DNA of 64,000 nucleotides from Ignavibacterium sp. (GTDB lineage Bacteria > Bacteroidota > Ignavibacteria > Ignavibacteriales > Ignavibacteriaceae), in the NCBI GenBank assembly GCA_037478755.1, contig JBBFMB010000001.1:2178-66177 (forward strand), given 5' to 3'. The position numbers and the translations under genes were made by a program. Of the stretch, positions 244 through 46,083 are shown piece by piece. Within the stretch, counting starts at the first letter, position 1, and the number at the start of each line of letters is the position of its first letter. The notes under the pieces are model-generated. The model made no database searches and had not been told where the DNA came from. It saw only the letters and a program-made list of their open reading frames with translations.

Positions 244-273
244 AAAAAAGCCCCGTGAATGAACGGGGCTTTT
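244..273 (-). terminator. Rho-independent terminator of the 294-3434 operon
   Basis: AAAAAAGCCCCGT-gaatga-ACGGGGCTTTT hairpin with a U-tract on the minus strand, 20 nt past the stop at 294. Confidence 0.85.
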
Positions 274-293: not shown

Positions 294-1466
294 TCAGAAA
301 GATGTGCCGAGTTTAAATCTGAGGTTTACAAATATTTTCGTGAATCCTATTTTGCCCGCATCAGTTCTGGAAATACTTGCTGAAGGACCAATTGCAAATG
401 CACTAAAGCCCCATCCTTCCATGATTTTCTGTACAAGCAAATTGATATTATACTGAGGTTGTCTGTATTTACTTGAAGGCATTGCATCAAATTGTAGATC
501 AAAAGTGCTACCGGCAAGAGACATTTCTCTGAATCCAAATCCGAAATGGAGTTCGTCTAAAAATTTTGCAACATAAACTTTTCCTCTTGTTGAGCCAAGC
601 ACCGAAACAGGATAACGAAATTCCCAATTGAGATAAGAATCATTGTTATGAATAACTCTTGCCTGATATTTTACAGAGCCGTCATCATTTAATACAACAG
701 TGCCTTCAGTTGGTTTTAGATAGCTGTTTAATTTTATTTGTCCGATTTCAGTTGTGGCTTTAAGATAACCAAATTCGAAAAAGTTGCCGAAAGGAATTGT
801 GTAGTAAACCTGAAATCCCTGACTGAAAATCAGATTATTATGATTTTGCTCTTTAACAGGTTCAATCATTGCATCAATATGATTGAACATACCTGCACGA
901 ACTCCGAGGATATGAAAATTCGCTTCGAAGAAATTTGTTTCGAGCGGACCGGAGTAAGGGGTTCCAAAACCAAAAGACAATCCAACATCCTGTTTTAACG
1001 AAACTCCCAGTCTTTCTCCTCCTTGCAGCTGAAGAAACGGATTGATATATCCAAGAGTGGGAGAGATTTGAGTTTTTGTTGGAGGTTGAAGTACCTTTCC
1101 GAATCTTATCTTTTCAATCACACGAGTGAAGACACTTCCGTAATGAATATCTTCTTCAAGATTAATCTTGAATGGATAAGTAATAATTCTTGCTCGCAGT
1201 TCTGGCTGCAATGCAAGCATTGGATATAAAGCGCCCTTAATAGAAATAGTTTGATTATTAGCATCTCTCAGGTCAACTATTATTTCTGCTTTCGGATCAG
1301 GCGGATCAATAAACAGAGCTTCCTGAATCTGAATAAATAAGCTGTCATCAAGCGGCTCCATTTGATAATACCTGATTTGTTCATCTTCTTGCTGAGCAAA
1401 TGACAAACTCAGAAAGAAAGATGAGACAATAAACAACACAGCAGAAATCAGAACAGTTTTTTTCAT
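294..1466 (-). CDS. Exported protein, probable outer-membrane beta-barrel with an N-terminal periplasmic region
   Basis: Sec signal peptide (..SLSFA/QQ); amphipathic Gly/aromatic-rich strands in the C-terminal two thirds; ends VNLRFKLGTSF (BAM-type terminal Phe). Confidence 0.65.
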   Translation of the reverse strand: MKKTVLISAVLFIVSSFFLSLSFAQQEDEQIRYYQMEPLDDSLFIQIQEALFIDPPDPKAEIIVDLRDANNQTISIKGALYPMLALQPELRARIITYPFKINLEEDIHYGSVFTRVIEKIRFGKVLQPPTKTQISPTLGYINPFLQLQGGERLGVSLKQDVGLSFGFGTPYSGPLETNFFEANFHILGVRAGMFNHIDAMIEPVKEQNHNNLIFSQGFQVYYTIPFGNFFEFGYLKATTEIGQIKLNSYLKPTEGTVVLNDDGSVKYQARVIHNNDSYLNWEFRYPVSVLGSTRGKVYVAKFLDELHFGFGFREMSLAGSTFDLQFDAMPSSKYRQPQYNINLLVQKIMEGWGFSAFAIGPSASISRTDAGKIGFTKIFVNLRFKLGTSF

Positions 1467-1487
1467 ATAAGTTTCACCTGATTATTT

Positions 1488-2435
1488 TTACTTTGAAAAA
1501 TCTGTGAAGAAAAATGAATCACCTACCTGAACGCGATCTTTTGTTCTTTCATCAACAGCAGTGAAGAAAAAGTTTACTTTGTATCTTCCATCTGATTCAC
1601 GAAGATTTCCGTTCTTATCTAACCAATCATCAAATGCAGATGATGTTGAAGCAATCTTCAATGAAACATTGTAAATCAGATTTCCATTGCTGTCTTTAAC
1701 TGGTCCTGTGACACTTATCGGACCATTCCAGTTAATCTTTAACTGATCAGGTCTGTTATCAATTACTGTTACTTTGAATACAGTAATGCGCTGCAATTCC
1801 TGAACATAAATATCACGCGCATTCATTTTGGTCGTAACTTTTTCAATTTTTATTTCAGGAGGTTTATTAGGAATTACTTTTATCCGATCTTCCTGTGAAC
1901 CAAATTTTACTACAACCTCTGTCTGATCTGTTAAATCAAATTTTCGTTCTTGTCCGGCAGGAATTACTACAATTGGTTTACTTCTGTCACGAGGATCATA
2001 AATTTCTACAGGAACACTTCCGGTGTTTGATGCGAGATTCCATGTATATTGAATAAAAGTTTGTTTTGAAGAAATCGGCAATGGCATTAATGTTTGTTCT
2101 TCAACAACAGGTTCTTCTTCTTTTGGCGGAGGTAATTCCTGAAGTTTTGTTTGAACTTCCTGAAGTTTCTGGTTTAATGAAGCTAACTTCTTTTTAAGTT
2201 CTTCATTTTCAACGGGAAGATTTTGATCAATCTTTATATCGAACTTCAAACCAAGTGCATACAATGAATCAATAAGAGTTACTAATGAATCACGAACTTT
2301 TTTATCAACAGTTTCTTCTTCAAGAGCAACACGACGTAAATCTAAATCTGCTCCTTTAAGAGCAAGCACAGTAATCACAAAAATGTAAAGCACCTGGTAA
2401 ATAACGAATTTACTATCTCGGTTTTTGTAAATCAT
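1488..2435 (-). CDS. GldM/PorM-like single-pass inner-membrane protein (divergent, short)
   Basis: N-terminus KFVIYQVLYIFVITVLAL parallels the GldM TM (RQKMINLMYLVFIAMLAM, recalled) with K9, Y17, I21, L24, A25; followed by a coiled coil, a PPP linker and beta-rich Ig-like periplasmic domains. Confidence 0.55.
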   Translation of the reverse strand: MIYKNRDSKFVIYQVLYIFVITVLALKGADLDLRRVALEEETVDKKVRDSLVTLIDSLYALGLKFDIKIDQNLPVENEELKKKLASLNQKLQEVQTKLQELPPPKEEEPVVEEQTLMPLPISSKQTFIQYTWNLASNTGSVPVEIYDPRDRSKPIVVIPAGQERKFDLTDQTEVVVKFGSQEDRIKVIPNKPPEIKIEKVTTKMNARDIYVQELQRITVFKVTVIDNRPDQLKINWNGPISVTGPVKDSNGNLIYNVSLKIASTSSAFDDWLDKNGNLRESDGRYKVNFFFTAVDERTKDRVQVGDSFFFTDFSK

Positions 2436-2444
2436 TTTACTCTC

Positions 2445-3434
2445 TTATTTCTTTACAACAATTGATTCGAGATATTTTAATCCGGTTAAAGTTTTTTCAT
2501 CAGATAGAGAATTGCTTGCCTGCTGTATAGAATTTGCGAGCGAGCTTAATTCCTGAATTTTCTGACTGCTTAAGGTATCAATCTGATTTATTTTTTCTGC
2601 AAGCATAGAGATTGATGCGAAATTCTTATGCATTATTTCACTAAGCTTTGCTGAATGCTCTATTAAAAGCTTATACTTTTCCAAATCAGCTAATGATAGA
2701 TTTGGTGCAGATACATTATTACCACCTGCAAATTGATTTAATTGCTTCATCAGATTTTTTGAATTCTCAATCTGAATTCTTGAAAAATATTTTTCACGAA
2801 TATCTTCTACGTGATTAACTACATTCTGAAATTCTACGCCAAGCTGATCAAGCACAGGTTCAAATAATTTTCCGATTGCTAAAACAATTAATGCTTTAAC
2901 TTCAAACGGAACAGAAAGTCCAAGAAAAATTTCTTCACCAAGCTTAATACTAATTAAAAGAATTGCAGCACCAATTAAAGGCAGCGCAGTTGATATACTG
3001 TCAATTACACTAGTGTATGAACTTATAATTCTGTCGATTGTTGCACTCGCGGGAGTTCTGATAATTTCGAGTTTTAATTTATTGAACGCAAGAAAAGCCA
3101 TAAAGACAAAGAAAGCATAAGTTAAAACAGGAAGCCACCAGAAACTATATGGTGAAATTTCTTCCTGAACCGGCTGCCAGTTTGGGAATAATGCTCTTGC
3201 AAGATCGACGGTTACATTTCCAAGAATTGGAACGGTTGACAAATCAAGAAAGAAGGAAAGTATTAGTGCAGCAAATGAAATCAATGCGGGCTTGAATACA
3301 ACTGAAAACTGAATATTTCTAACTGCAGATTTAGTGTATTCTTCAAGCTCTCTTTCAAGCTCATTATTTGTTATGTCAGGATTAAGAAAATCCCTTGTGT
3401 TGTCTTTGGGTGGTTTAACAGCTTGAGTTACCAT
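2445..3434 (-). CDS. 4-TM ion-motor subunit-like protein (GldL/PorL- and MotA/ExbB-like) with a C-terminal coiled coil
   Basis: Four hydrophobic segments; TM3-TM4 read LPLIGAAILLISIK...FEVKALIVLAIGKLFEPV; helical heptad-rich cytoplasmic tail. Confidence 0.55.
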   Translation of the reverse strand: MVTQAVKPPKDNTRDFLNPDITNNELERELEEYTKSAVRNIQFSVVFKPALISFAALILSFFLDLSTVPILGNVTVDLARALFPNWQPVQEEISPYSFWWLPVLTYAFFVFMAFLAFNKLKLEIIRTPASATIDRIISSYTSVIDSISTALPLIGAAILLISIKLGEEIFLGLSVPFEVKALIVLAIGKLFEPVLDQLGVEFQNVVNHVEDIREKYFSRIQIENSKNLMKQLNQFAGGNNVSAPNLSLADLEKYKLLIEHSAKLSEIMHKNFASISMLAEKINQIDTLSSQKIQELSSLANSIQQASNSLSDEKTLTGLKYLESIVVKK

Positions 3435-3477
3435 TATTCTCCTCTAATATGTTTTTAAGTAAAGTTTATTCGTCAAC

Positions 3478-3576
3478 AAAAAAAATACTTGCCGAATAAT
3501 CTTTTTCGAGTTGCAAGCAGGACAAGTATCATACCATAAGAATAAAAATTTTGTGTGCTGAAAGAATTATCGGCAA
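3478..3576 (-). promoter_or_regulatory. Candidate attenuator (terminator/antiterminator) in the 5' leader of the motor-like operon
   Basis: Segment 3485-3507 can pair with 3521-3529 (9-bp stem with a G-U on the minus strand, followed by U8 at 3478-3485) or with 3560-3576 (longer imperfect stem). Confidence 0.4.
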
Positions 3577-3807
3577 CAATTAAAATTGAATTGCTTACAA
3601 ACTTTTATGTATTATTTCAAAAAAGCAAGATTAAAATGCTAAATGAGTAAAGAATATTTTTACTTGTTGATGTAAAAAAGTAATTATCATTTAATAATTT
3701 TTTTATCAAGTAATATTTACAGGAAAAATGTTCTTTGTGTAATTTTATTTTACTTCATAATTAATAGCACATCATTAGTTATTTTTGAATGGAAGATATA
3801 AATAATT

Positions 3808-6670: not shown

Positions 6671-7708
6671 CTATAATCCTGTTCTTAAAAATCTTGGTTC
6701 TTCAAGAGTAAGCATAATTGAAATTCTGTGTGAGTCTGGTAATCTGTCAATTTCAGATTCACTGAACCGTGCAAACGAGTAATCAATATTCAGTTTTGGT
6801 AATTTAACTCCTGCACCGACAGTAAATTGTTTAACATCATTATATCCACCGCGAACATATATAAGATTTTTGAAAGTATATTCTAATCCTGCGTGCATAT
6901 CAAAACTTACCGGACCCAAATTAAATTGTGAAGCAAATCTTCTGTTCTCAAATCTGACATCAAAATCCAGAGCTGGCATTATATAGCCGCCAAGAAACTC
7001 AGTTAACTTATAAGCTGCACCAAGCTTCAAAGTGGGTGAGACAAGTTCATTTCTGCCAGTGCTCCACGCAACCAGTGTAGTAGTTGCATCCTGAAGATTT
7101 GCACCAAGATAAAGATTTTCATAAGGTGTATAAAATGCTCCAACATCAAATCCAATTCCTGTTGCACTGTATTCTGCTAAAGTTCTTCTGATAACTTTCG
7201 CATTAACTCCCCAATAAAAATTATCTGATTGTCTTTTTGCAAATGTTAAATAAAATGCCCAATCCTGATTGCTGAATTCAGTAATGCGGCTGTAATCTAA
7301 TCTGTCATCACGAATATCAATTACACCATCTCCGTTTGCATCATAAAGTGCATTTCTCGTATCTGGAATACCATCAACACCCAAACGCATTACACTTAGT
7401 CCAAAACTCATATCTGTGCTGAAAGGAATTGCAACTGCTCCATAATCATAATTAACAAGATTTCCGAATTGTTCAGAGTGCATAAGTGCAATTTGAGGAT
7501 AATTCAGATTTGCTAAACCAGCCGGGTTGTAGTAACCTGAAGTTACATCGTTTGCAACAGCAACAAAAGCTCCGCCCATACCAAGTGCTCTTCCTCCAAC
7601 GCCCAAAGCCATAAACTCGCCAGCGTATTTTGCGAAAACAGTTTGTGCGTTAATTGTTGCAGCAGTTGAGAATAAAACAACTAATATTAAAAAGATTTTA
7701 GAGCGCAT
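6671..7708 (-). CDS. PorV/PorQ (FadL-like) family outer-membrane barrel, T9SS-associated
   Basis: Signal peptide, then ALGVGGRALGMGGAFVAVANDVTSGYYNPAGL, the N-terminal signature of PorV/FadL-like barrels. Confidence 0.75.
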   Translation of the reverse strand: MRSKIFLILVVLFSTAATINAQTVFAKYAGEFMALGVGGRALGMGGAFVAVANDVTSGYYNPAGLANLNYPQIALMHSEQFGNLVNYDYGAVAIPFSTDMSFGLSVMRLGVDGIPDTRNALYDANGDGVIDIRDDRLDYSRITEFSNQDWAFYLTFAKRQSDNFYWGVNAKVIRRTLAEYSATGIGFDVGAFYTPYENLYLGANLQDATTTLVAWSTGRNELVSPTLKLGAAYKLTEFLGGYIMPALDFDVRFENRRFASQFNLGPVSFDMHAGLEYTFKNLIYVRGGYNDVKQFTVGAGVKLPKLNIDYSFARFSESEIDRLPDSHRISIMLTLEEPRFLRTGL

Positions 7709-8066: not shown

Positions 8067-8921
8067 ATGAAAAATGTTATTCTGATTCTGATAGCTTTAC
8101 TCATTCTTAATGAACACTCATCAGCACAATTACTTAACAATAGTTTTGAGAATTGGGATAATGGAGAAGCTGTCAACTGGTTGTCTAATGATATTTCTGG
8201 TGACCTGGTGTCTCAATCATCAGATGCAGTTGAAGGAAATTCTTCTGTGAAGTTACAAGTTGGAGATTTTGCAGGTGTTGGATTACCTGTTTTTATTACC
8301 TCAGCAGATCTGGATGGTAATGGTCATCCTGTAAATCAAAAATATCAGACACTTAAAGGTTCTCATAAATTATCTGCTAACGGAAATGATCAGCTTTGGA
8401 TTTCTGTGGTGATGGCAGTGAATGATTCAACGACTTTGGGTGGTGGAATGATCTACCTCAATGAAGACAAAAGTGAATGGACTGAATTTACTGTTCCAAT
8501 TCTGTATGATGAAAATAGTCCAGTTCCTCAAATGGCTTTTGTTACTATTTTCCTGCTTGATACTTCTACTGGTTCGGCAAATATCGGTTCATTTGCACTG
8601 ATTGATAATTTGCGATTAGAAAATACGACATCTGTTGATGAAGAAATAAAAAGTGCCTCAAGTTTTAAGTTAGATCAGAACTATCCAAATCCATTTAACC
8701 CAAGCACAAAAATTAGCTGGAATACTTTTTCAGCTGCCCGTAACACTTTGAAAGTCTATAATATACTTGGAAATGAAGTTGCAAAACTGGTAGATGAATA
8801 CAAACCAGCAGGCACTTACAGTGTTAACTTTGATGCAAAGGGATTACCAAGCGGAATTTATTTTTATACTCTCCAGGTTGGGAACCAAGTTCAAACTAAG
8901 AAAATGATTTTAATTCAATAA
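8067..8921 (+). CDS. Secreted protein with a CBM-like domain and a T9SS type A C-terminal sorting domain
   Basis: Signal peptide; LLNNSFENW start; C-terminal FKLDQNYPNPFNPST...GIYFY...KKMILIQ; AGGAGG RBS. Confidence 0.85.
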   Translation: MKNVILILIALLILNEHSSAQLLNNSFENWDNGEAVNWLSNDISGDLVSQSSDAVEGNSSVKLQVGDFAGVGLPVFITSADLDGNGHPVNQKYQTLKGSHKLSANGNDQLWISVVMAVNDSTTLGGGMIYLNEDKSEWTEFTVPILYDENSPVPQMAFVTIFLLDTSTGSANIGSFALIDNLRLENTTSVDEEIKSASSFKLDQNYPNPFNPSTKISWNTFSAARNTLKVYNILGNEVAKLVDEYKPAGTYSVNFDAKGLPSGIYFYTLQVGNQVQTKKMILIQ

Positions 8922-19493: not shown

Positions 19494-21794
19494 ATGAAAA
19501 ATTTTATTCGCTGTTTCGCTTTAATAATTCTTTTCTCGGTTGTACTTTACTCACAACCAGATACAATTACAATTCTTCATATTAATGATTCACATTCAAC
19601 ACTTGAATCAATAGGTCCACGAGATGATAATTTGCAGGGAACACTCGGCGGAATTTCGAGAGTAGCCACACTTGTTGGTTTAACTGAAATGACAGAGCCG
19701 AATGTTCTTTTCCTGCACGCTGGTGATATTTCAATCGGTGATGTGTTCTTCAACAGAAATTTTCATGTCCCTGAACTTCAATTGCTAAACTCACTCGGAC
19801 TTGATGCAATGACTTTGGGAAATCATGAATTTGATTTAGGTCCTGCAGCGTTGCTCGGTTCATTACAATATGCTTTTCCAAATCCTGCTGATGCTTTTCC
19901 GCTTCTTTCTGCCAATATTGATTTTTCTGATCCTTCAATCAGTGAAATGCAGGATTATGTTTATCCTTATGTGATTAAACAATTCGGCAGCACTAAGGTT
20001 GGAATATTTGGTTTAACGACACCAGCAACAAATCTTTTATCAAATCCATCACCAGCAATAGTTAGTGATGATATTGCTACTATTGCGTTTACTACAGTTC
20101 AGACTTTACGGAATGTTGAAATGTGCAATGTTGTTATTCTTCTTTCTCATCTCGGTTTTGAGCTTGATCAGCTTATTGCTGCAAATGTTCCGGGCATTGA
20201 TGTAATTGTTGGAGGTCACGATCATTATAAATATGAAACTCCGATTTCGGTTACGAATAGTTTCGGCGGAACTGCTTTGATTGTTCAGGCGAGATCAAAT
20301 TATATGTATGCTGGAAATATGAAACTCGAGATTAATGGTTCTTCAATTAATTTGATTGATTATCAGCTTATTCCAATTGATGAAAATATTCCTAAGGAGC
20401 CAACAGTTCAAGCCGCTGTTGACGCGATGATAACAGACATAGAAACATTTTATGGAATACCATTTTACACTCAACCGATGGGTTATGCAGTTTCATACTT
20501 TGAAGAAGAAGCAACTAATCTGCTAAATCTCGGACCTCACGATACACCTGCAGGAAATCTTGTTACTGATGCTTTTAAATCTTACACTCAAACTGACATT
20601 GCAATACAAGCAGGCGGTTCAATTGCGCTTCCGCTTTGGGAAGGTGCATTTACTCCGGCAGATGTTTTTCGCCTGAACGGTTACGGATTTAATCTGACAA
20701 ATACACTGGGATTTCAACTTGTAACTTTTAATATTAGTGGTGCAGCACTAATTGCAGGACTTGAGTTCGGTTTATCTGAAATTGAAAAGAGTGACGAGTT
20801 CTTCATTCAGACTTCTGGTGTTGAATACACTTACGATGGAACAAAGCCGCAGGGTTCAAGAGTTGTTTCGGTTAAAATTAATAATCAACCGGTTAATCCA
20901 AATTCAATCTATTCTGTTACAGCCAATGAAATGGTAATTTCAATTCTCGATTATCTTCAGATTCCATATTCTGATTTGAATGTTTTTACTGGTGTTACAG
21001 AATTTCAGGCATTGACTCAATACATAATGGGACAGGGAAATGTATTAGTTCCCAAAAACCTTGGAAGAATATTAAATGTAGGAGACAGAATTCAGAAAGC
21101 GTCAATATTCGGATTTGGCTATATGAATGTTACAATACCATCTCTGTCTTCATTGGAAATGATAAATGCAAAATTATACTTTGAACTTCATGGCATAGAC
21201 AGAGGATTAAACCATAATCCGCAGGGAAAAGTTAATTTGACAATTCCAAAAATTGGAATGATTTTCAGAAGCAATTCTCTCGATTGGCTGCTTGTAGAAA
21301 ATAATAATGCTGTATTAAGAGGAACTGGTAAAATAAATTTTCAGGGGAATTACGGTTATCTTATTTTAGCAATGAACCATCCCGATAAATTGAGAGTAAT
21401 TATTTGGGATGAGAACGATAATGATAAACTTATCTTTGATAATAAGAGCTTACAAAATGTTAATGGCCTTATAAGTTTTGGCAACAGCTTGATGTTTGCT
21501 AAAGATGATTTTACATCAGAGGAAATTCCTGGCAGATTTGTTCTTGAACAAAATTATCCCAATCCATTTAATGCAGCAACTATTATCAGATATTCAATCC
21601 CTGAAGCTGCTAATGTAGAACTTAAAGTTTATGACATACTTGGTAATGAAGTTGCAACTTTGGTTAATGAATTCAAGCCTGCCGGAAGTTACGATGCTCA
21701 ATTTACAATGAATGATTTTGCTTCTGGAATTTACTTCTACAAAATAATCGCTGGTTCATTTATCGATACGAAGAAAATGATAATAATTAAATAA
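19494..21794 (+). CDS. Secreted 5'-nucleotidase/calcineurin-like metallophosphatase with a T9SS C-terminal domain
   Basis: HINDSH, AGD, LGNHEFD, SHLG, GGHDH; 5'-nucleotidase C domain; LEQNYPNPFN...KKMIIIK CTD. Confidence 0.9.
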   Translation: MKNFIRCFALIILFSVVLYSQPDTITILHINDSHSTLESIGPRDDNLQGTLGGISRVATLVGLTEMTEPNVLFLHAGDISIGDVFFNRNFHVPELQLLNSLGLDAMTLGNHEFDLGPAALLGSLQYAFPNPADAFPLLSANIDFSDPSISEMQDYVYPYVIKQFGSTKVGIFGLTTPATNLLSNPSPAIVSDDIATIAFTTVQTLRNVEMCNVVILLSHLGFELDQLIAANVPGIDVIVGGHDHYKYETPISVTNSFGGTALIVQARSNYMYAGNMKLEINGSSINLIDYQLIPIDENIPKEPTVQAAVDAMITDIETFYGIPFYTQPMGYAVSYFEEEATNLLNLGPHDTPAGNLVTDAFKSYTQTDIAIQAGGSIALPLWEGAFTPADVFRLNGYGFNLTNTLGFQLVTFNISGAALIAGLEFGLSEIEKSDEFFIQTSGVEYTYDGTKPQGSRVVSVKINNQPVNPNSIYSVTANEMVISILDYLQIPYSDLNVFTGVTEFQALTQYIMGQGNVLVPKNLGRILNVGDRIQKASIFGFGYMNVTIPSLSSLEMINAKLYFELHGIDRGLNHNPQGKVNLTIPKIGMIFRSNSLDWLLVENNNAVLRGTGKINFQGNYGYLILAMNHPDKLRVIIWDENDNDKLIFDNKSLQNVNGLISFGNSLMFAKDDFTSEEIPGRFVLEQNYPNPFNAATIIRYSIPEAANVELKVYDILGNEVATLVNEFKPAGSYDAQFTMNDFASGIYFYKIIAGSFIDTKKMIIIK

Positions 21795-42779: not shown

Positions 42780-43613
42780 TTGAAATTGAGTAAGAAAAAA
42801 TCAGCTTCTGATGAAAAGCTGCAGAACGAATTAAAAAAGTCTGGCGAAATACCAAAACACATTGCCATAATAATGGATGGCAACGGCAGATGGGCAAAAA
42901 AAAGAGGATTACCCAGAGTTGCAGGGCACAAAAGAGGTGTTGATACCGTCAAAGACATTGTTGAAGCTTGTGCTGAAATAGGAGTGAAGTATTTAACGCT
43001 ATATACTTTTTCAACTGAAAATTGGAAACGCCCGAAAGATGAAGTATCAACTCTGATGCGCTTATTATTGAATAGCTTAAAAGATCGTGTTGATGAACTT
43101 TGCGAAAATGATATCAAGCTCACAACTATTGGTGATACTGAGGCACTTCCGTATGAAGTTCAGAAGCAGCTGAAAGCTGATATCGAAAGAACCAAAAATA
43201 ACAAGAAGATGGTTCTTAATCTGGCTTTAAGCTATAGCGGCAGGTGGGAAATTCTTGAAGCGGTTAAAAAAATTTCTAAAGCAGTTGAAAAAGGGGATAT
43301 CAGAGCTGAAGATATTAATGAAAAATTATTCTCACAGTTTTTAACTACTAAAGATTTACCGGATCCGGATCTGGTAATCCGAACAAGTGGGGAATTCAGA
43401 GTAAGTAATTTTCTATTGTGGCAAATTGCATATTCTGAATTTGTTATTACAGATATTTATTGGCCTGATTTTAACAGGCATCATTTATATGAATCTATTC
43501 GTGCTTTTCAGAAGCGCGAACGCAGATTTGGTAAAGTTAGTGAACAAATTAAAAAAGAAGTCAACTCAAAAGGCGTTACGAATGCAGAAAAACTCCCTTC
43601 TCAGATTAGTTAA
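42780..43613 (+). CDS. uppS: Undecaprenyl diphosphate synthase (isoprenyl transferase)
   Basis: HIAIIMDGNGRWA, FSTENWKRP, RTSGEFRVSNFLLWQ. Confidence 0.96.
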   Translation: MKLSKKKSASDEKLQNELKKSGEIPKHIAIIMDGNGRWAKKRGLPRVAGHKRGVDTVKDIVEACAEIGVKYLTLYTFSTENWKRPKDEVSTLMRLLLNSLKDRVDELCENDIKLTTIGDTEALPYEVQKQLKADIERTKNNKKMVLNLALSYSGRWEILEAVKKISKAVEKGDIRAEDINEKLFSQFLTTKDLPDPDLVIRTSGEFRVSNFLLWQIAYSEFVITDIYWPDFNRHHLYESIRAFQKRERRFGKVSEQIKKEVNSKGVTNAEKLPSQIS

Positions 43614-46083
43614 TCTTGTCATCATACTTTCGTTTATCTTTTCTATTCAGATTGCTTTTGCACAAGGACAGAGTAAAGTTTATAAAGTTCTTGGTATTAC
43701 AGTCGCAGGCAATAAAACCGCTGATGCAAATGCTATAATTTCAGCAAGTGGTATTAAGGTTAATGATGAAATACAAGTTCCCGGAGATAAAACTATAAGC
43801 GCGATAAAAAATCTCTGGGCATTAAATATTTTCAAGGATGTACAGCTGATTGTTGATAAAGAAATCGGCGACGGAATTTTTCTTCAGATAAAGGTTGAAG
43901 AATATCCGAGATTTGAAAAAATTATCTTTGAAGGCAATGATGAAATAAGCACCAGTGATCTTGAAAAAAATGTAACCTTTTTAAGAGGCACCGTAATTAA
44001 ACCGCAGGATATAGCTAAGCTGAAACAAAAAATTCTTAAGGAATATGAAAAAGAAGGATTGCTTAGTGCAAGCATTCAGGATAAGTTCTATACTTTTCTT
44101 TCCGCAGATACCACCGAAGAAGAAATTATCACACGATGGAGAAATGACAAGGATTTTTCTGATGAATTTGAATTCCGATATAACAGAGGCGATACTAAGT
44201 ATTCAGATCTTATTTCCAGAATTAAAGACAGAGTTATAATTAAATTTATCATAGATGAAGGTGAAGAAGTCCGCGTTAGAAAAATTGAGTTTGTTGGAAA
44301 TAAAGCTTTTGATGAAGATGATCTCAAAGATGCAATGGAAGAAATTAACGAAGCAAAATGGTGGAAGTTTTGGGGCAGTGGAAAATTTGATTTTGAAAAT
44401 TATAAAAAAGATAAACAGGCAATAATCAAATTCTACAGAAAGAATGGTTATCGTGATGCTGCTATTATTTCGGATACTCTGATTTATTCAAATAATAAAA
44501 AAGATCTTACTATCCGAATGGAAGTTTATGAAGGATTGCAATACAAGGTTAGAAACATTAATTGGGTTGGCAATACTGTGTATCCGAGCGAAGTTCTTTC
44601 AGAAAGATTAGATATTGCCAAAGGAGATATTTTTGACGCGGATAAGTTCGAAAAGAATTTAAGAGGTAATGAAAAACAAACGGATGTGTCTTCACTATAT
44701 CTTGATAACGGATATCTTACATTTAATCTCCAGCCAAAAGAAATAAAAGTTGCAGAAGACTCAATAGATATTGAAATAAGAATTGAAGAAAGAAATCAGT
44801 TCACAGTAAACAGAGTTGATATTGAAGGTAACGATAAAACAAAAGAAAAAGTTATTCGACGTGAACTTTATACAATACCAGGTGATTACTTTAATCGCGG
44901 CTTATTGTTAAGAAGCATTCAGAACCTTGCAAACCTTCAATACTTTAATGTGGAAAAACTTTATGGTGCTGAAGGAATTGGAACTAAGTTAGCAAGCGAC
45001 AGCACAGTTGATATTTCATTCCGAGTTGAGGAAAAATCAAGTGACTATTTAAATGCCTCTGTTGGTTATAGTGGTGCGTTCGGATTCAGCGGAGCAGTTG
45101 GTATTACTTTAACAAACTTTTCCATTACTGAACCTTTCCAGCTTGGCGGAGGACAAGTTTTAAGTTTTAACTGGCAGTTTGGTGTTGGTAGTTTGTATAG
45201 AACATTTACACTTGGTTTTACCGAGCCCTGGTTGTTCGATACACCAACTTCTGTCGGTGCAGAAATTTTCGATACCAGACAACAATATGTATATGACCTG
45301 AGACAAACAGGTGCCACAATCAGAGTTGGCCGAAAACTTCGCTGGCCGGATGATTTCTTCTATATTCAAGGTCGTGTTAAATATCAATACAACAATGTTC
45401 TCGAAGGTCAGGGATTTTATGTTGAAGGCAGAACCAATCAATATACTGTCGGTGGATTAATTGCTAGAAAAGATATTGACAATCCGATTTTCCCATCAAT
45501 TGGTTCTTCAGTTCAACTCGATGCTGAATTATCCGGCGGTCCTTTACTTCCCGGTGATGTTGATTATCTGAAAATTGGTTTTACTGCTGAATGGTATCGC
45601 AGACTTTTTAATACAAACAGAATTACATTATATACAATTGCAGATCTTGGCTATATAGATGAGATTGTTCGCGGAACAAAGATTCAACCTTTTGAATTTT
45701 ATTATATGGGCGGAAATGGACTGATTATCGCAACAACATCTCTAAGAGGTTATGATGACAGAACAGTTGGTCCGAAAAATGTTAATGGACAAGTCATTGG
45801 TGGAAGAGTGATGGCAAAATTTGGAACTGAATTAAGATTAGCAGTTTCGATTGAGCCGATTCCACTTTACATTCTTGCTTTTGCAGAAGCAGGCAATGTT
45901 TTTGAAAGTTTTGAGAAAACAGATATTTTTGACCTTCGACGATCAGTTGGATTTGGTGCCAGATTACTTATAAATCCAATTGGTCTGATAGGTTTTGATC
46001 TTGGTTATGGTTTTGACAGAAAAGCTGTTAGTGGAAACGATCCGGCTTGGCTTTTCCACTTTCAGTTTGGAAAAGGATTTTAA
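43582..46083 (+). CDS. bamA: Outer membrane protein assembly factor BamA
   Basis: ATG 43582 gives a signal peptide; POTRA repeats (GN..T...IRRE); LRGY; ends FQFGKGF. Confidence 0.95.
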   Translation: MQKNSLLRLVNLVIILSFIFSIQIAFAQGQSKVYKVLGITVAGNKTADANAIISASGIKVNDEIQVPGDKTISAIKNLWALNIFKDVQLIVDKEIGDGIFLQIKVEEYPRFEKIIFEGNDEISTSDLEKNVTFLRGTVIKPQDIAKLKQKILKEYEKEGLLSASIQDKFYTFLSADTTEEEIITRWRNDKDFSDEFEFRYNRGDTKYSDLISRIKDRVIIKFIIDEGEEVRVRKIEFVGNKAFDEDDLKDAMEEINEAKWWKFWGSGKFDFENYKKDKQAIIKFYRKNGYRDAAIISDTLIYSNNKKDLTIRMEVYEGLQYKVRNINWVGNTVYPSEVLSERLDIAKGDIFDADKFEKNLRGNEKQTDVSSLYLDNGYLTFNLQPKEIKVAEDSIDIEIRIEERNQFTVNRVDIEGNDKTKEKVIRRELYTIPGDYFNRGLLLRSIQNLANLQYFNVEKLYGAEGIGTKLASDSTVDISFRVEEKSSDYLNASVGYSGAFGFSGAVGITLTNFSITEPFQLGGGQVLSFNWQFGVGSLYRTFTLGFTEPWLFDTPTSVGAEIFDTRQQYVYDLRQTGATIRVGRKLRWPDDFFYIQGRVKYQYNNVLEGQGFYVEGRTNQYTVGGLIARKDIDNPIFPSIGSSVQLDAELSGGPLLPGDVDYLKIGFTAEWYRRLFNTNRITLYTIADLGYIDEIVRGTKIQPFEFYYMGGNGLIIATTSLRGYDDRTVGPKNVNGQVIGGRVMAKFGTELRLAVSIEPIPLYILAFAEAGNVFESFEKTDIFDLRRSVGFGARLLINPIGLIGFDLGYGFDRKAVSGNDPAWLFHFQFGKGF

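Follow-up and report, generated by a model that had tools for sequence, protein, structure and literature searches.

A conserved three-gene envelope operon of Ignavibacteria, possibly an ion-driven machine acting on a predicted outer-membrane protein

In a 64,000-nucleotide stretch of DNA from Ignavibacterium sp. (GenBank assembly GCA_037478755.1, contig JBBFMB010000001.1, positions 2,178 to 66,177), which as a whole is referred to here as the window, an operon of three minus-strand genes was analysed that encodes a putative inner-membrane protein (open reading frame ORF329), a single-pass membrane protein (ORF315) and a predicted outer-membrane protein (ORF390). The three genes form a real, conserved, self-contained and undescribed envelope module. 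The reading preferred here, to which a probability of about 0.4 was assigned, is that they encode an undescribed, probably ion-driven ring-and-axle envelope machine that acts on an outer-membrane protein with a link to the export of polysaccharides. The operon, its conservation and the pattern of this conservation, the protein architectures and the gene contexts of the paralogs were directly observed. Newly provided are a census of the operon against the sortase PorU, regional conservation figures, split-gene and peptidoglycan-binding variants of the module and the occurrence of ORF390 relatives in a polysaccharide context.

A previous examination of the letters of the DNA (the sequence-only reading) had proposed a GldL/GldM-like motor coupled to an outer-membrane barrel, either as a divergent type IX secretion system (T9SS) motor or as a separate motor-plus-barrel machine. 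This overall interpretation was partly supported by sequence comparisons and structure models, the motor nature being unproven, and of the two options the second is to be preferred.

Operon structure and distribution

The operon is composed of the following elements, given with their positions in the window.

2445-3434, minus strand: ORF329 (gene A), 329 aa, putative inner-membrane protein, stator-A-like candidate
1488-2435, minus strand: ORF315 (gene B), 315 aa, single-pass protein (N-terminus inside), GldM-like or axle-like candidate
294-1466, minus strand: ORF390 (gene C), 390 aa, orphan family, predicted outer-membrane protein with signal peptide and rich in beta structure
246-273, minus strand: intrinsic-terminator-like hairpin of 11 pairs (6 G-C) followed by a T-run, closing the operon

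The intergenic gaps amount to 9 nt between ORF329 and ORF315 (2436-2444) and to 21 nt between ORF315 and ORF390 (1467-1487), and the terminator-like hairpin, a strong one, lies about 20 nt beyond the stop codon of ORF390. ORF329 is 95% identical to IALB_2935 and ORF390 about 90% identical to IALB_2937 of Ignavibacterium album; the operon is present in the cultured and sequenced strain I. album JCM 16511, where the middle gene presumably is IALB_2936. The database relatives of all three proteins are annotated as 'hypothetical protein', and a literature search on IALB_2935, IALB_2936 and IALB_2937 retrieved no paper.

For the analysis of its distribution, 151 Ignavibacteria genomes were queried with a profile of ORF329 relatives and with ORF315 and ORF390 as single sequences. 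Exactly the same 19 genomes were matched by all three queries, with the genes adjacent and in conserved order, and because of this shared occurrence and order the operon stands far beyond chance. The carriers belong to three of 26 families, here called f1 (2 of 3 genomes), f6 (10 of 10) and f17 (6 of 6), and none was found in the 23 other families. A wider sample of 301 Bacteroidota genomes yielded two further carriers inside the class, which added one family, and no operon outside the class Ignavibacteria. The ORF329 family is narrow, with relatives in 74 clusters only when 1.8 billion cluster representatives were searched. Among the genomes sampled, the module is limited to a few families of Ignavibacteria.

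Protein architecture and conservation within the membrane

Three segments of ORF329 and ORF315 are needed for the following description; TM denotes transmembrane helices, Ig immunoglobulin and pLDDT the predicted local distance difference test.

2844-2996, minus strand: TM3-TM4 core of ORF329 (residues ~147-197), the best-conserved part of the protein
2349-2423, minus strand: N-terminal segment of ORF315 with its TM helix (residues 5-33)
1491-2075, minus strand: two Ig-like beta-sandwich domains of ORF315 (residues 121-199 and 200-315), pLDDT >90

The AlphaFold2 model of ORF329 is all-helical (mean pLDDT 82), with hydrophobic helices at residues ~46-66, ~96-120, ~147-165 and ~170-197 and a helical tail of 130 residues thereafter, and the charge distribution, as read from the sequence, is consistent with a topology in which both termini are inside. 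In ORF315, a short N-terminus is followed by a single TM helix, by helices that were modelled poorly (low pLDDT) and by the two beta-sandwich domains. Its C-terminal end is a conserved aromatic tail, which reads SFFFTDF in this protein and SFxFGEW in other families and in which F308 and F310 are near-invariant or invariant.

Regional identities of both proteins were computed among relatives that are less than 60% identical overall. In ORF329 they reached 67% in TM3 and 59% in TM4, as compared to 16-34% elsewhere, with P152, L153, G155, A156, A157, P176, F177, E178, K189, L190, F191 and D196 invariant or near-invariant. In ORF315, residues 5-33 showed 71% identity and the rest of the protein 20-29%; invariant were D7, K9, F10, I12, Y13, Q14, L16-V20 (including Y17), V23 and K27-A29. 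The charged residues at the membrane boundary are invariant in both partners (D7 and K9 of ORF315, E178 and K189 of ORF329), D7 being located at the cytoplasmic boundary of the TM helix and not within it. Plain membrane anchors are usually the least conserved parts of proteins, while conservation inside the membrane is typical of stator cores. Because TM3 and TM4 of ORF329 and the TM helix of ORF315 are the most conserved parts and carry charged boundary residues, a functional intramembrane device is suggested, and this intramembrane conservation is the best single argument for it.

The descriptive part of the sequence-only reading was borne out by these data. The three tightly spaced minus-strand genes with one terminator were confirmed by the coordinates and the hairpin, and their co-occurrence in other genomes was found as well; the four-TM protein with a cytoplasmic coil agreed with the model and the charges of ORF329, the single-pass protein with a periplasmic helical part and beta-rich domains corresponded to ORF315, and ORF390 possesses the signal peptide and the terminal Phe (...KLGTSF) that had been described.

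Likeness to ion-driven motors

The 5:2 rotary motors, formed by MotA/PomA, ExbB, TolQ or ZorA with B subunits, have been reviewed (PMC9389320), and structures of the proton-driven 5:2 motor GldL-GldM/PorL-PorM have been reported (bioRxiv 10.1101/2022.01.28.478170). As for GldL-GldM, the gene of the candidate ring subunit is here followed by that of the candidate axle subunit. GldL has a pair of TM helices, a conserved Glu of which (Fjo E49) is the partner of R9 in GldM, and then a cytoplasmic helical domain; GldM is composed of a TM helix, a periplasmic helical domain D1 and the Ig-like domains D2-D4. TM3-TM4 and the cytoplasmic helical tail of ORF329 parallel the two TM helices and the tail of GldL, and ORF315 resembles GldM in its short cytoplasmic N-terminus, single TM helix, helical part and tandem Ig-like domains, with the invariant K9 and Y17 standing at the positions of R9 and Y17 of GldM in an ungapped register. 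The invariant E178 in TM4 of ORF329, however, lies at another depth than the Glu of GldL once the FEP motifs are aligned. Further differences are the two additional N-terminal TM helices of ORF329, the size of ORF315 (315 aa versus ~515 aa) with two instead of three Ig-like domains, the lack of gldK and gldN, a predicted outer-membrane protein as partner instead of a periplasmic ring, and a distribution of the operon that does not track T9SS.

With MotA, ORF329 shares four TM helices with both termini inside, and with the MotA/ExbB class it shares Pro-x-x-Gly within the third helix as well as an acidic residue within the final one; in addition, the partner gene follows directly, and the TM helix of its product bears an invariant Asp at the boundary to the cytoplasm. 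In contrast to MotA, the large cytoplasmic part of ORF329 is C-terminal, as in GldL and ZorA, and not inserted between TM2 and TM3; the long cytoplasmic tail is likewise a feature of ZorA. MotB, ExbD and TolR are characterised by a conserved Asp inside the TM helix and by an OmpA-like or ExbD-like domain in the periplasm; ORF315 has its invariant D7 at the boundary of the helix and no OmpA-like or ExbD-like domain.

Profile comparisons with hhalign were performed against GldL, GldM and MotA/ExbB reference sequences taken from other Bacteroidota genomes. The ORF329 core matched the GldL core with P = 0.012 (reversed controls ~0.28) and the full ORF329 family matched GldL with P = 0.0015 (reversed controls 0.09-0.10), while the N-terminus of ORF315 matched that of GldM without gaps (14-27 on 14-27) with P = 0.029 and the full ORF315 family matched GldM weakly at 348-445 with P = 0.0026 (reversed controls 0.13-0.27 for both), all of these values being better than those of the controls and obtained in the register expected, but short of any accepted threshold. 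Against 20 MotA/ExbB/TolQ sequences, P values of 0.22-0.49 were obtained for the ORF329 family. Such a blank result proves little, because the method also misses the kinship of MotA and GldL (P = 0.32), which are both accepted members of one structural class.

In a Foldseek search with the ORF329 model the top ranks were nearly all occupied by ExbB, TolQ, PomA and MotA, at E values of 0.06-0.9 and TM-scores of 0.12-0.38 (E 0.06-0.7 for the first 37 ranks), and VIA re-alignment gave Z ~8 for TolQ, ExbB and ZorA over residues 97-237. By language-model features, the nearest named clusters of ORF329 carry MotA_ExbB or ZorA, which with scores of 0.76-0.79 is a lead only. A shape search of the ESM Atlas with the same model returned long-helix proteins only, for example chemoreceptors, and was discarded. 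Taken together, every line of motor likeness points in the same direction and all of them stay below significance; membership in GldL, GldM or MotA_ExbB is not demonstrated by them, and that the pair works like a motor is suggested by architecture and conservation.

ORF390 and the link to polysaccharide export

ORF390 carries a signal peptide and is free of Cys. In beta-type hydrophobic moment it ranks first among six proteins compared, and it ends in ...RFKLGTSF; in other families a short charged tail follows the aromatic residue. It is therefore predicted to be an outer-membrane protein, the features being only suggestive of a barrel. The clusters retrieved by a feature search of the ESM Atlas were unnamed ones, labelled 'outer membrane protein' or 'cell surface protein', and a profile search against PDB sequences found nothing.

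The functional hint comes from its relatives. A paralog on contig C24, which is 60-62% identical to ORF390, is located 15 nt downstream of the gene of a 742-aa Wzc-type co-polymerase/kinase with Wzz, GNVR and P-loop domains, in the following cluster.

L051 (contig C24) 4361-9689, minus strand: in order, UDP-sugar dehydrogenase, 180-aa OPX-like protein with SLBB domain, 742-aa Wzc-type protein, ORF390 paralog

Within the same genus, genes for an AsnB-like protein, a GT4 glycosyltransferase and a methyltransferase come after a third paralog on its strand. The OPX/PCP neighbourhood thus holds for the paralog on C24 and more loosely for the third paralog, and it is absent at ORF390 itself.

Porins of the Wzp type are 18-stranded beta-barrels of the outer membrane that are related to PgaA. 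In Class-3 OPX systems the gene of the porin Wzp is positioned beside the OPX and PCP genes (PMC9603273), and the periplasmic export protein WzaB docks on the porin WzpB via a C-terminal Phe-Phe tail (PMC12819527). The ORF390 paralog on C24 sits in this Wzp gene position. Both systems have a periplasm-spanning partner with an aromatic tail (ORF315 and WzaB, respectively) that faces an outer-membrane protein (ORF390 and WzpB), and by this analogy the tail of ORF315 may dock on ORF390. They differ in that ORF390 itself adjoins no polysaccharide gene, the Wzp gene position being that of its paralog, and in that the inner-membrane partners are motor-like here and a co-polymerase or kinase there.

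Proposed mechanism

From these observations we infer an assembly, an ion coupling, a contact between ORF315 and ORF390 and a substrate as follows. ORF329 would assemble into an inner-membrane ring enclosing ORF315's TM helix (or helices), as in the 5:2 stators MotAB, ExbBD, TolQR, GldLM and ZorAB, in which a pentamer encircles two B-subunit helices. Ions would flow through the core of TM3/TM4 and the ORF315 TM helix, with participation of the invariant residues E178 and K189 (ORF329) as well as D7 and K9 (ORF315), and this flow would move ORF315, whose helical linker and two Ig-like domains would transmit the movement across the periplasm to ORF390 in the outer membrane, on which the aromatic C-terminal tail would dock. 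The output would most likely be the gating or driving of export, or the handling, of a surface polysaccharide, or else another outer-membrane process; the polysaccharide role is rated as most likely because members of the ORF390 family are encoded in Wza/Wzc-type clusters. The work of the operon is probably not type IX protein secretion.

A more far-reaching version, considered unlikely, is that ORF329 and ORF315 represent a new 5:2-type motor family without detectable sequence kinship to the five stator systems named above, the axle of which reaches a porin-like protein of the outer membrane directly and powers or gates the export of a surface polymer. Only a handful of ion-driven 5:2 motor families is known (flagella, Ton, Tol, gliding/T9SS and Zorya), and each of them opened a field. 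If true, this version would mean a motor-driven outer-membrane export step of an undescribed kind and another way for diderm bacteria to bring energy to the outer membrane.

Variants of the module

Solo paralogs of ORF315, one or two per genome, were found in family f6, and their N-terminus and TM helix are nearly identical to those of the operon copy.

L052 4048-4950: solo ORF315 paralog, family f6
L054 4412-5371: solo ORF315 paralog, family f6
L053 4098-5027: solo ORF315 paralog, family f6

Because of the near-identical N-terminus and TM helix, several axles sharing one ring would fit, and the solo paralogs may be such alternative axles. Two of the three (L052 and L054) adjoin genes for a membrane protein and a putative LuxR-type response regulator, the latter recognised by a look at the sequence without a Pfam scan. 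The operon of f6 is itself flanked by two-component regulators.

Two divergent operons (L050 5507-8030 and L083 3005-5886) have ORF315 in two parts, one being a short protein with the same TM motif and the other a separately encoded secreted protein, with extra small genes between them. In the secreted protein, the C-terminal 120 residues correspond to Ig-like domain two of ORF315 together with its aromatic tail (hhalign 96.9%, E = 1.4e-10).

The operons of f17 are extended by a fourth gene, which is located 58-78 nt downstream of the ORF390 homologue on the same strand and encodes an OmpA-family or LysM peptidoglycan-binding protein.

L039 5368-5994: fourth gene, family f17
L040 3502-4128: fourth gene, family f17
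L042 7468-8265: fourth gene, family f17

A cell-wall anchor is common in stator systems. On contig L082, an OmpA-like C-terminus was recognised by eye upstream of the ORF329 homologue. The ORF329 homologues of f6 and f17 (~400-412 aa; L009-L035) bear the C-terminal module of about 65 residues twice, as seen from a second match of the ORF329 profile (positions 225-292) to these longer proteins.

Evidence against a motor and the passive alternative

Several results speak against the ring-and-axle machine proposed above. No significant sequence or profile match was found between ORF329 and MotA_ExbB or GldL, or between ORF315 and GldM, ExbD or MotB; a GldL hidden Markov model (HMM) built for this study ranked ORF329 842nd, and GldM HMMs ranked ORF315 134th to 810th, among the ~5,400 ORFs of the genome. 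In an unbiased VIA search with ORF329, unrelated helical bundles scored as high (Z 8-10) as stators, and the fold match is therefore unspecific; the ORF315 domains gave generic Ig and cadherin matches only when compared with known folds. Moreover, the polysaccharide link is drawn from paralogs of ORF390 and not from its own neighbours, one paralog in f6 lies outside any polysaccharide cluster, and the 180-aa export protein beside the C24 paralog has a hydrophobic C-terminal helix of its own, because of which it may not need a porin.

The sequence-only reading had counted missing profile matches to GldL, GldM and MotA/ExbB against itself, and none was obtained; the motor TM motifs that it had seen are present at a sub-significant level only, as the hhalign values of the ORF329 core and the ORF315 N-terminus and HMM ranks of 810 and 842 indicate. 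Searches of Pfam, NCBIfam, PADLOC and PDB sequences and profiles with the three proteins and their family alignments returned coiled-coil noise only, including no match to the PADLOC models of Zorya (ZorA/ZorB). The PF01618 MotA_ExbB model misses ORF329 and detects four other genes of the same genome, at least two of which precede genes of ExbD-like partners. For GldL (TIGR03513), NCBIfam gave no match to ORF329 and the genome search nothing at E <= 1, and for GldM (TIGR03517) the best genome match (E 0.35) was at a locus other than ORF315. Whether the GldL/GldM HMMs were run whole or trimmed to their TM parts, neither ORF329 nor ORF315 ranked high. A regular expression for GldM-like N-termini matched nothing in the genome, the pattern being too narrow to catch even ORF315. 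No GldM/PorM chain was among the best 50 VIA matches listed for ORF315, which carries no weight either way, and a complex prediction of four ORF329 (36-215) with two ORF315 (1-60) chains scored 0.07 at a mark of 0.32 and counts neither for nor against. Ignavibacteria are unmentioned in a 2025 survey of MotAB homologues.

The alternative rated next, somewhat unlikely in our estimate, is a passive envelope-spanning scaffold or signalling complex, in which a static, co-polymerase-like or tethering ORF329-ORF315 pair positions or regulates ORF390 and no ion-driven movement takes place. Such a complex would agree with the missing significant homology of the operon proteins to any motor family, the generic fold matches of ORF329 and ORF315 and the two-component regulators around the f6 operon, and also with the pairing of ORF390 paralogs with a Wzc-type co-polymerase, which likewise sits in the inner membrane and reaches into the periplasm with a helical part. 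It hardly explains, however, why purifying selection is strongest on the TM helices and charged boundary residues, and why the weak matches all point to one protein class, the stators.

The type IX secretion question

The first option of the sequence-only reading, a divergent T9SS motor of this lineage, was prompted by further genes in the window, which were found as described.

6671-7708: PorV2/PorQ-family gene, 3 kb from the operon
8067-8921: 284-aa protein ending in a T9SS type A sorting domain (TIGR04183)
19494-21794: 766-aa 5'-nucleotidase/phosphoesterase-family protein ending in a T9SS type A sorting domain (TIGR04183)

The host genome, which is 86% complete, encodes SprA (C94:3097-9471) and the sortase PorU (C8:24418-27732, 1015 bits); the part of the PorU model that covers the C-terminal sorting domain is matched by more than 35 other frames. 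The proposed genome search for canonical T9SS parts thus succeeded for SprA, PorU and PorV and was negative for GldK, GldL and GldM, none of which exceeded the cut-off in the host genome; no GldK-like gene is present in the operon either, in agreement with the sequence-only reading. GldM was found in none of five near-complete genomes that carry the operon, all with SprA, by a model which detects GldM in two control genomes. GldL exceeded the cut-off in none of 81 class genomes, as compared to 14 of 47 genomes elsewhere in the phylum. For Ignavibacterium and Melioribacter, PorV, SprA and the plug, and no other T9SS protein, have been listed (PMC11705866, 2024); PorU is not reported there, and the match found here adds to that list. 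Throughout the class, T9SS seems to operate with no motor that can be recognised.

It is against this background that ORF329 and ORF315 could be a very divergent GldL/GldM (PorL/PorM) pair powering the T9SS of these bacteria. The secretion components and many C-terminal sorting domains present beside undetected GldK, GldL and GldM, the short published list, the GldM-like layout with its weak register matches and the PorV2 gene 3 kb away in the family of the host would suit this explanation, which is nevertheless very unlikely. Of the 151 class genomes, 150 have PorU but only 19, from three of 26 families, have the operon, with one more family in the wider sample; for this reason the operon is too patchy to be the general answer to the missing T9SS motor of Ignavibacteria, and the distribution fits a lineage-specific T9SS motor poorly. 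With no GldL in the 81 class genomes, most T9SS-bearing relatives thus manage without the operon. In addition, the PorV2 neighbourhood is kept only in the family of the host and lost in f6 and f17, relatives of ORF390 are located in polysaccharide and not in T9SS clusters, and no PorK- or PorN-like ring genes are present beside the operon.

A similarly low probability is given to a Ton/Tol-like transducer, in which an ORF329-ORF315 motor would pull ORF390 open for nutrient uptake or maintain the integrity of the outer membrane: it shares the motor-like evidence of the ring-and-axle machine, the best Foldseek ranks are ExbB and TolQ and the peptidoglycan-binding neighbours recall Pal, but ORF390 lacks any known domain, those of TonB-dependent receptors and plugs included, ORF315 has no TonB-, TolA- or ExbD-like domain, and the genome already possesses the four MotA/ExbB-family genes, at least two with ExbD-like partners.

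Further features of the locus

Upstream of the operon, the following region is presumed to contain its promoter and leader.

3435-3807: AT-rich intergenic region (373 nt, ~25% GC) between ORF329 and the divergent alpha-amylase-family gene

Promoter-like consensus matches in this region were not above chance. A weak terminator-like hairpin was noticed within ORF315 (2348-2365, minus strand); it is probably a chance occurrence, because the region contains no more of these sites (2) than are expected from shuffled sequences (1.9).

Parts of all three genes are overlapped by contigs of two metatranscriptome libraries that were made from a microbial mat (one study, a related strain), and one of these contigs spans the junction of ORF329 and ORF315, which is weak evidence, as coverage is partial and of low depth, DNA carry-over is possible and uncovered parts carry no meaning.

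Finally, a BamA homologue was identified at positions 43426-46083 (TIGR03303, 410 bits), and the insertion machinery for outer-membrane barrels is therefore encoded in the same window.

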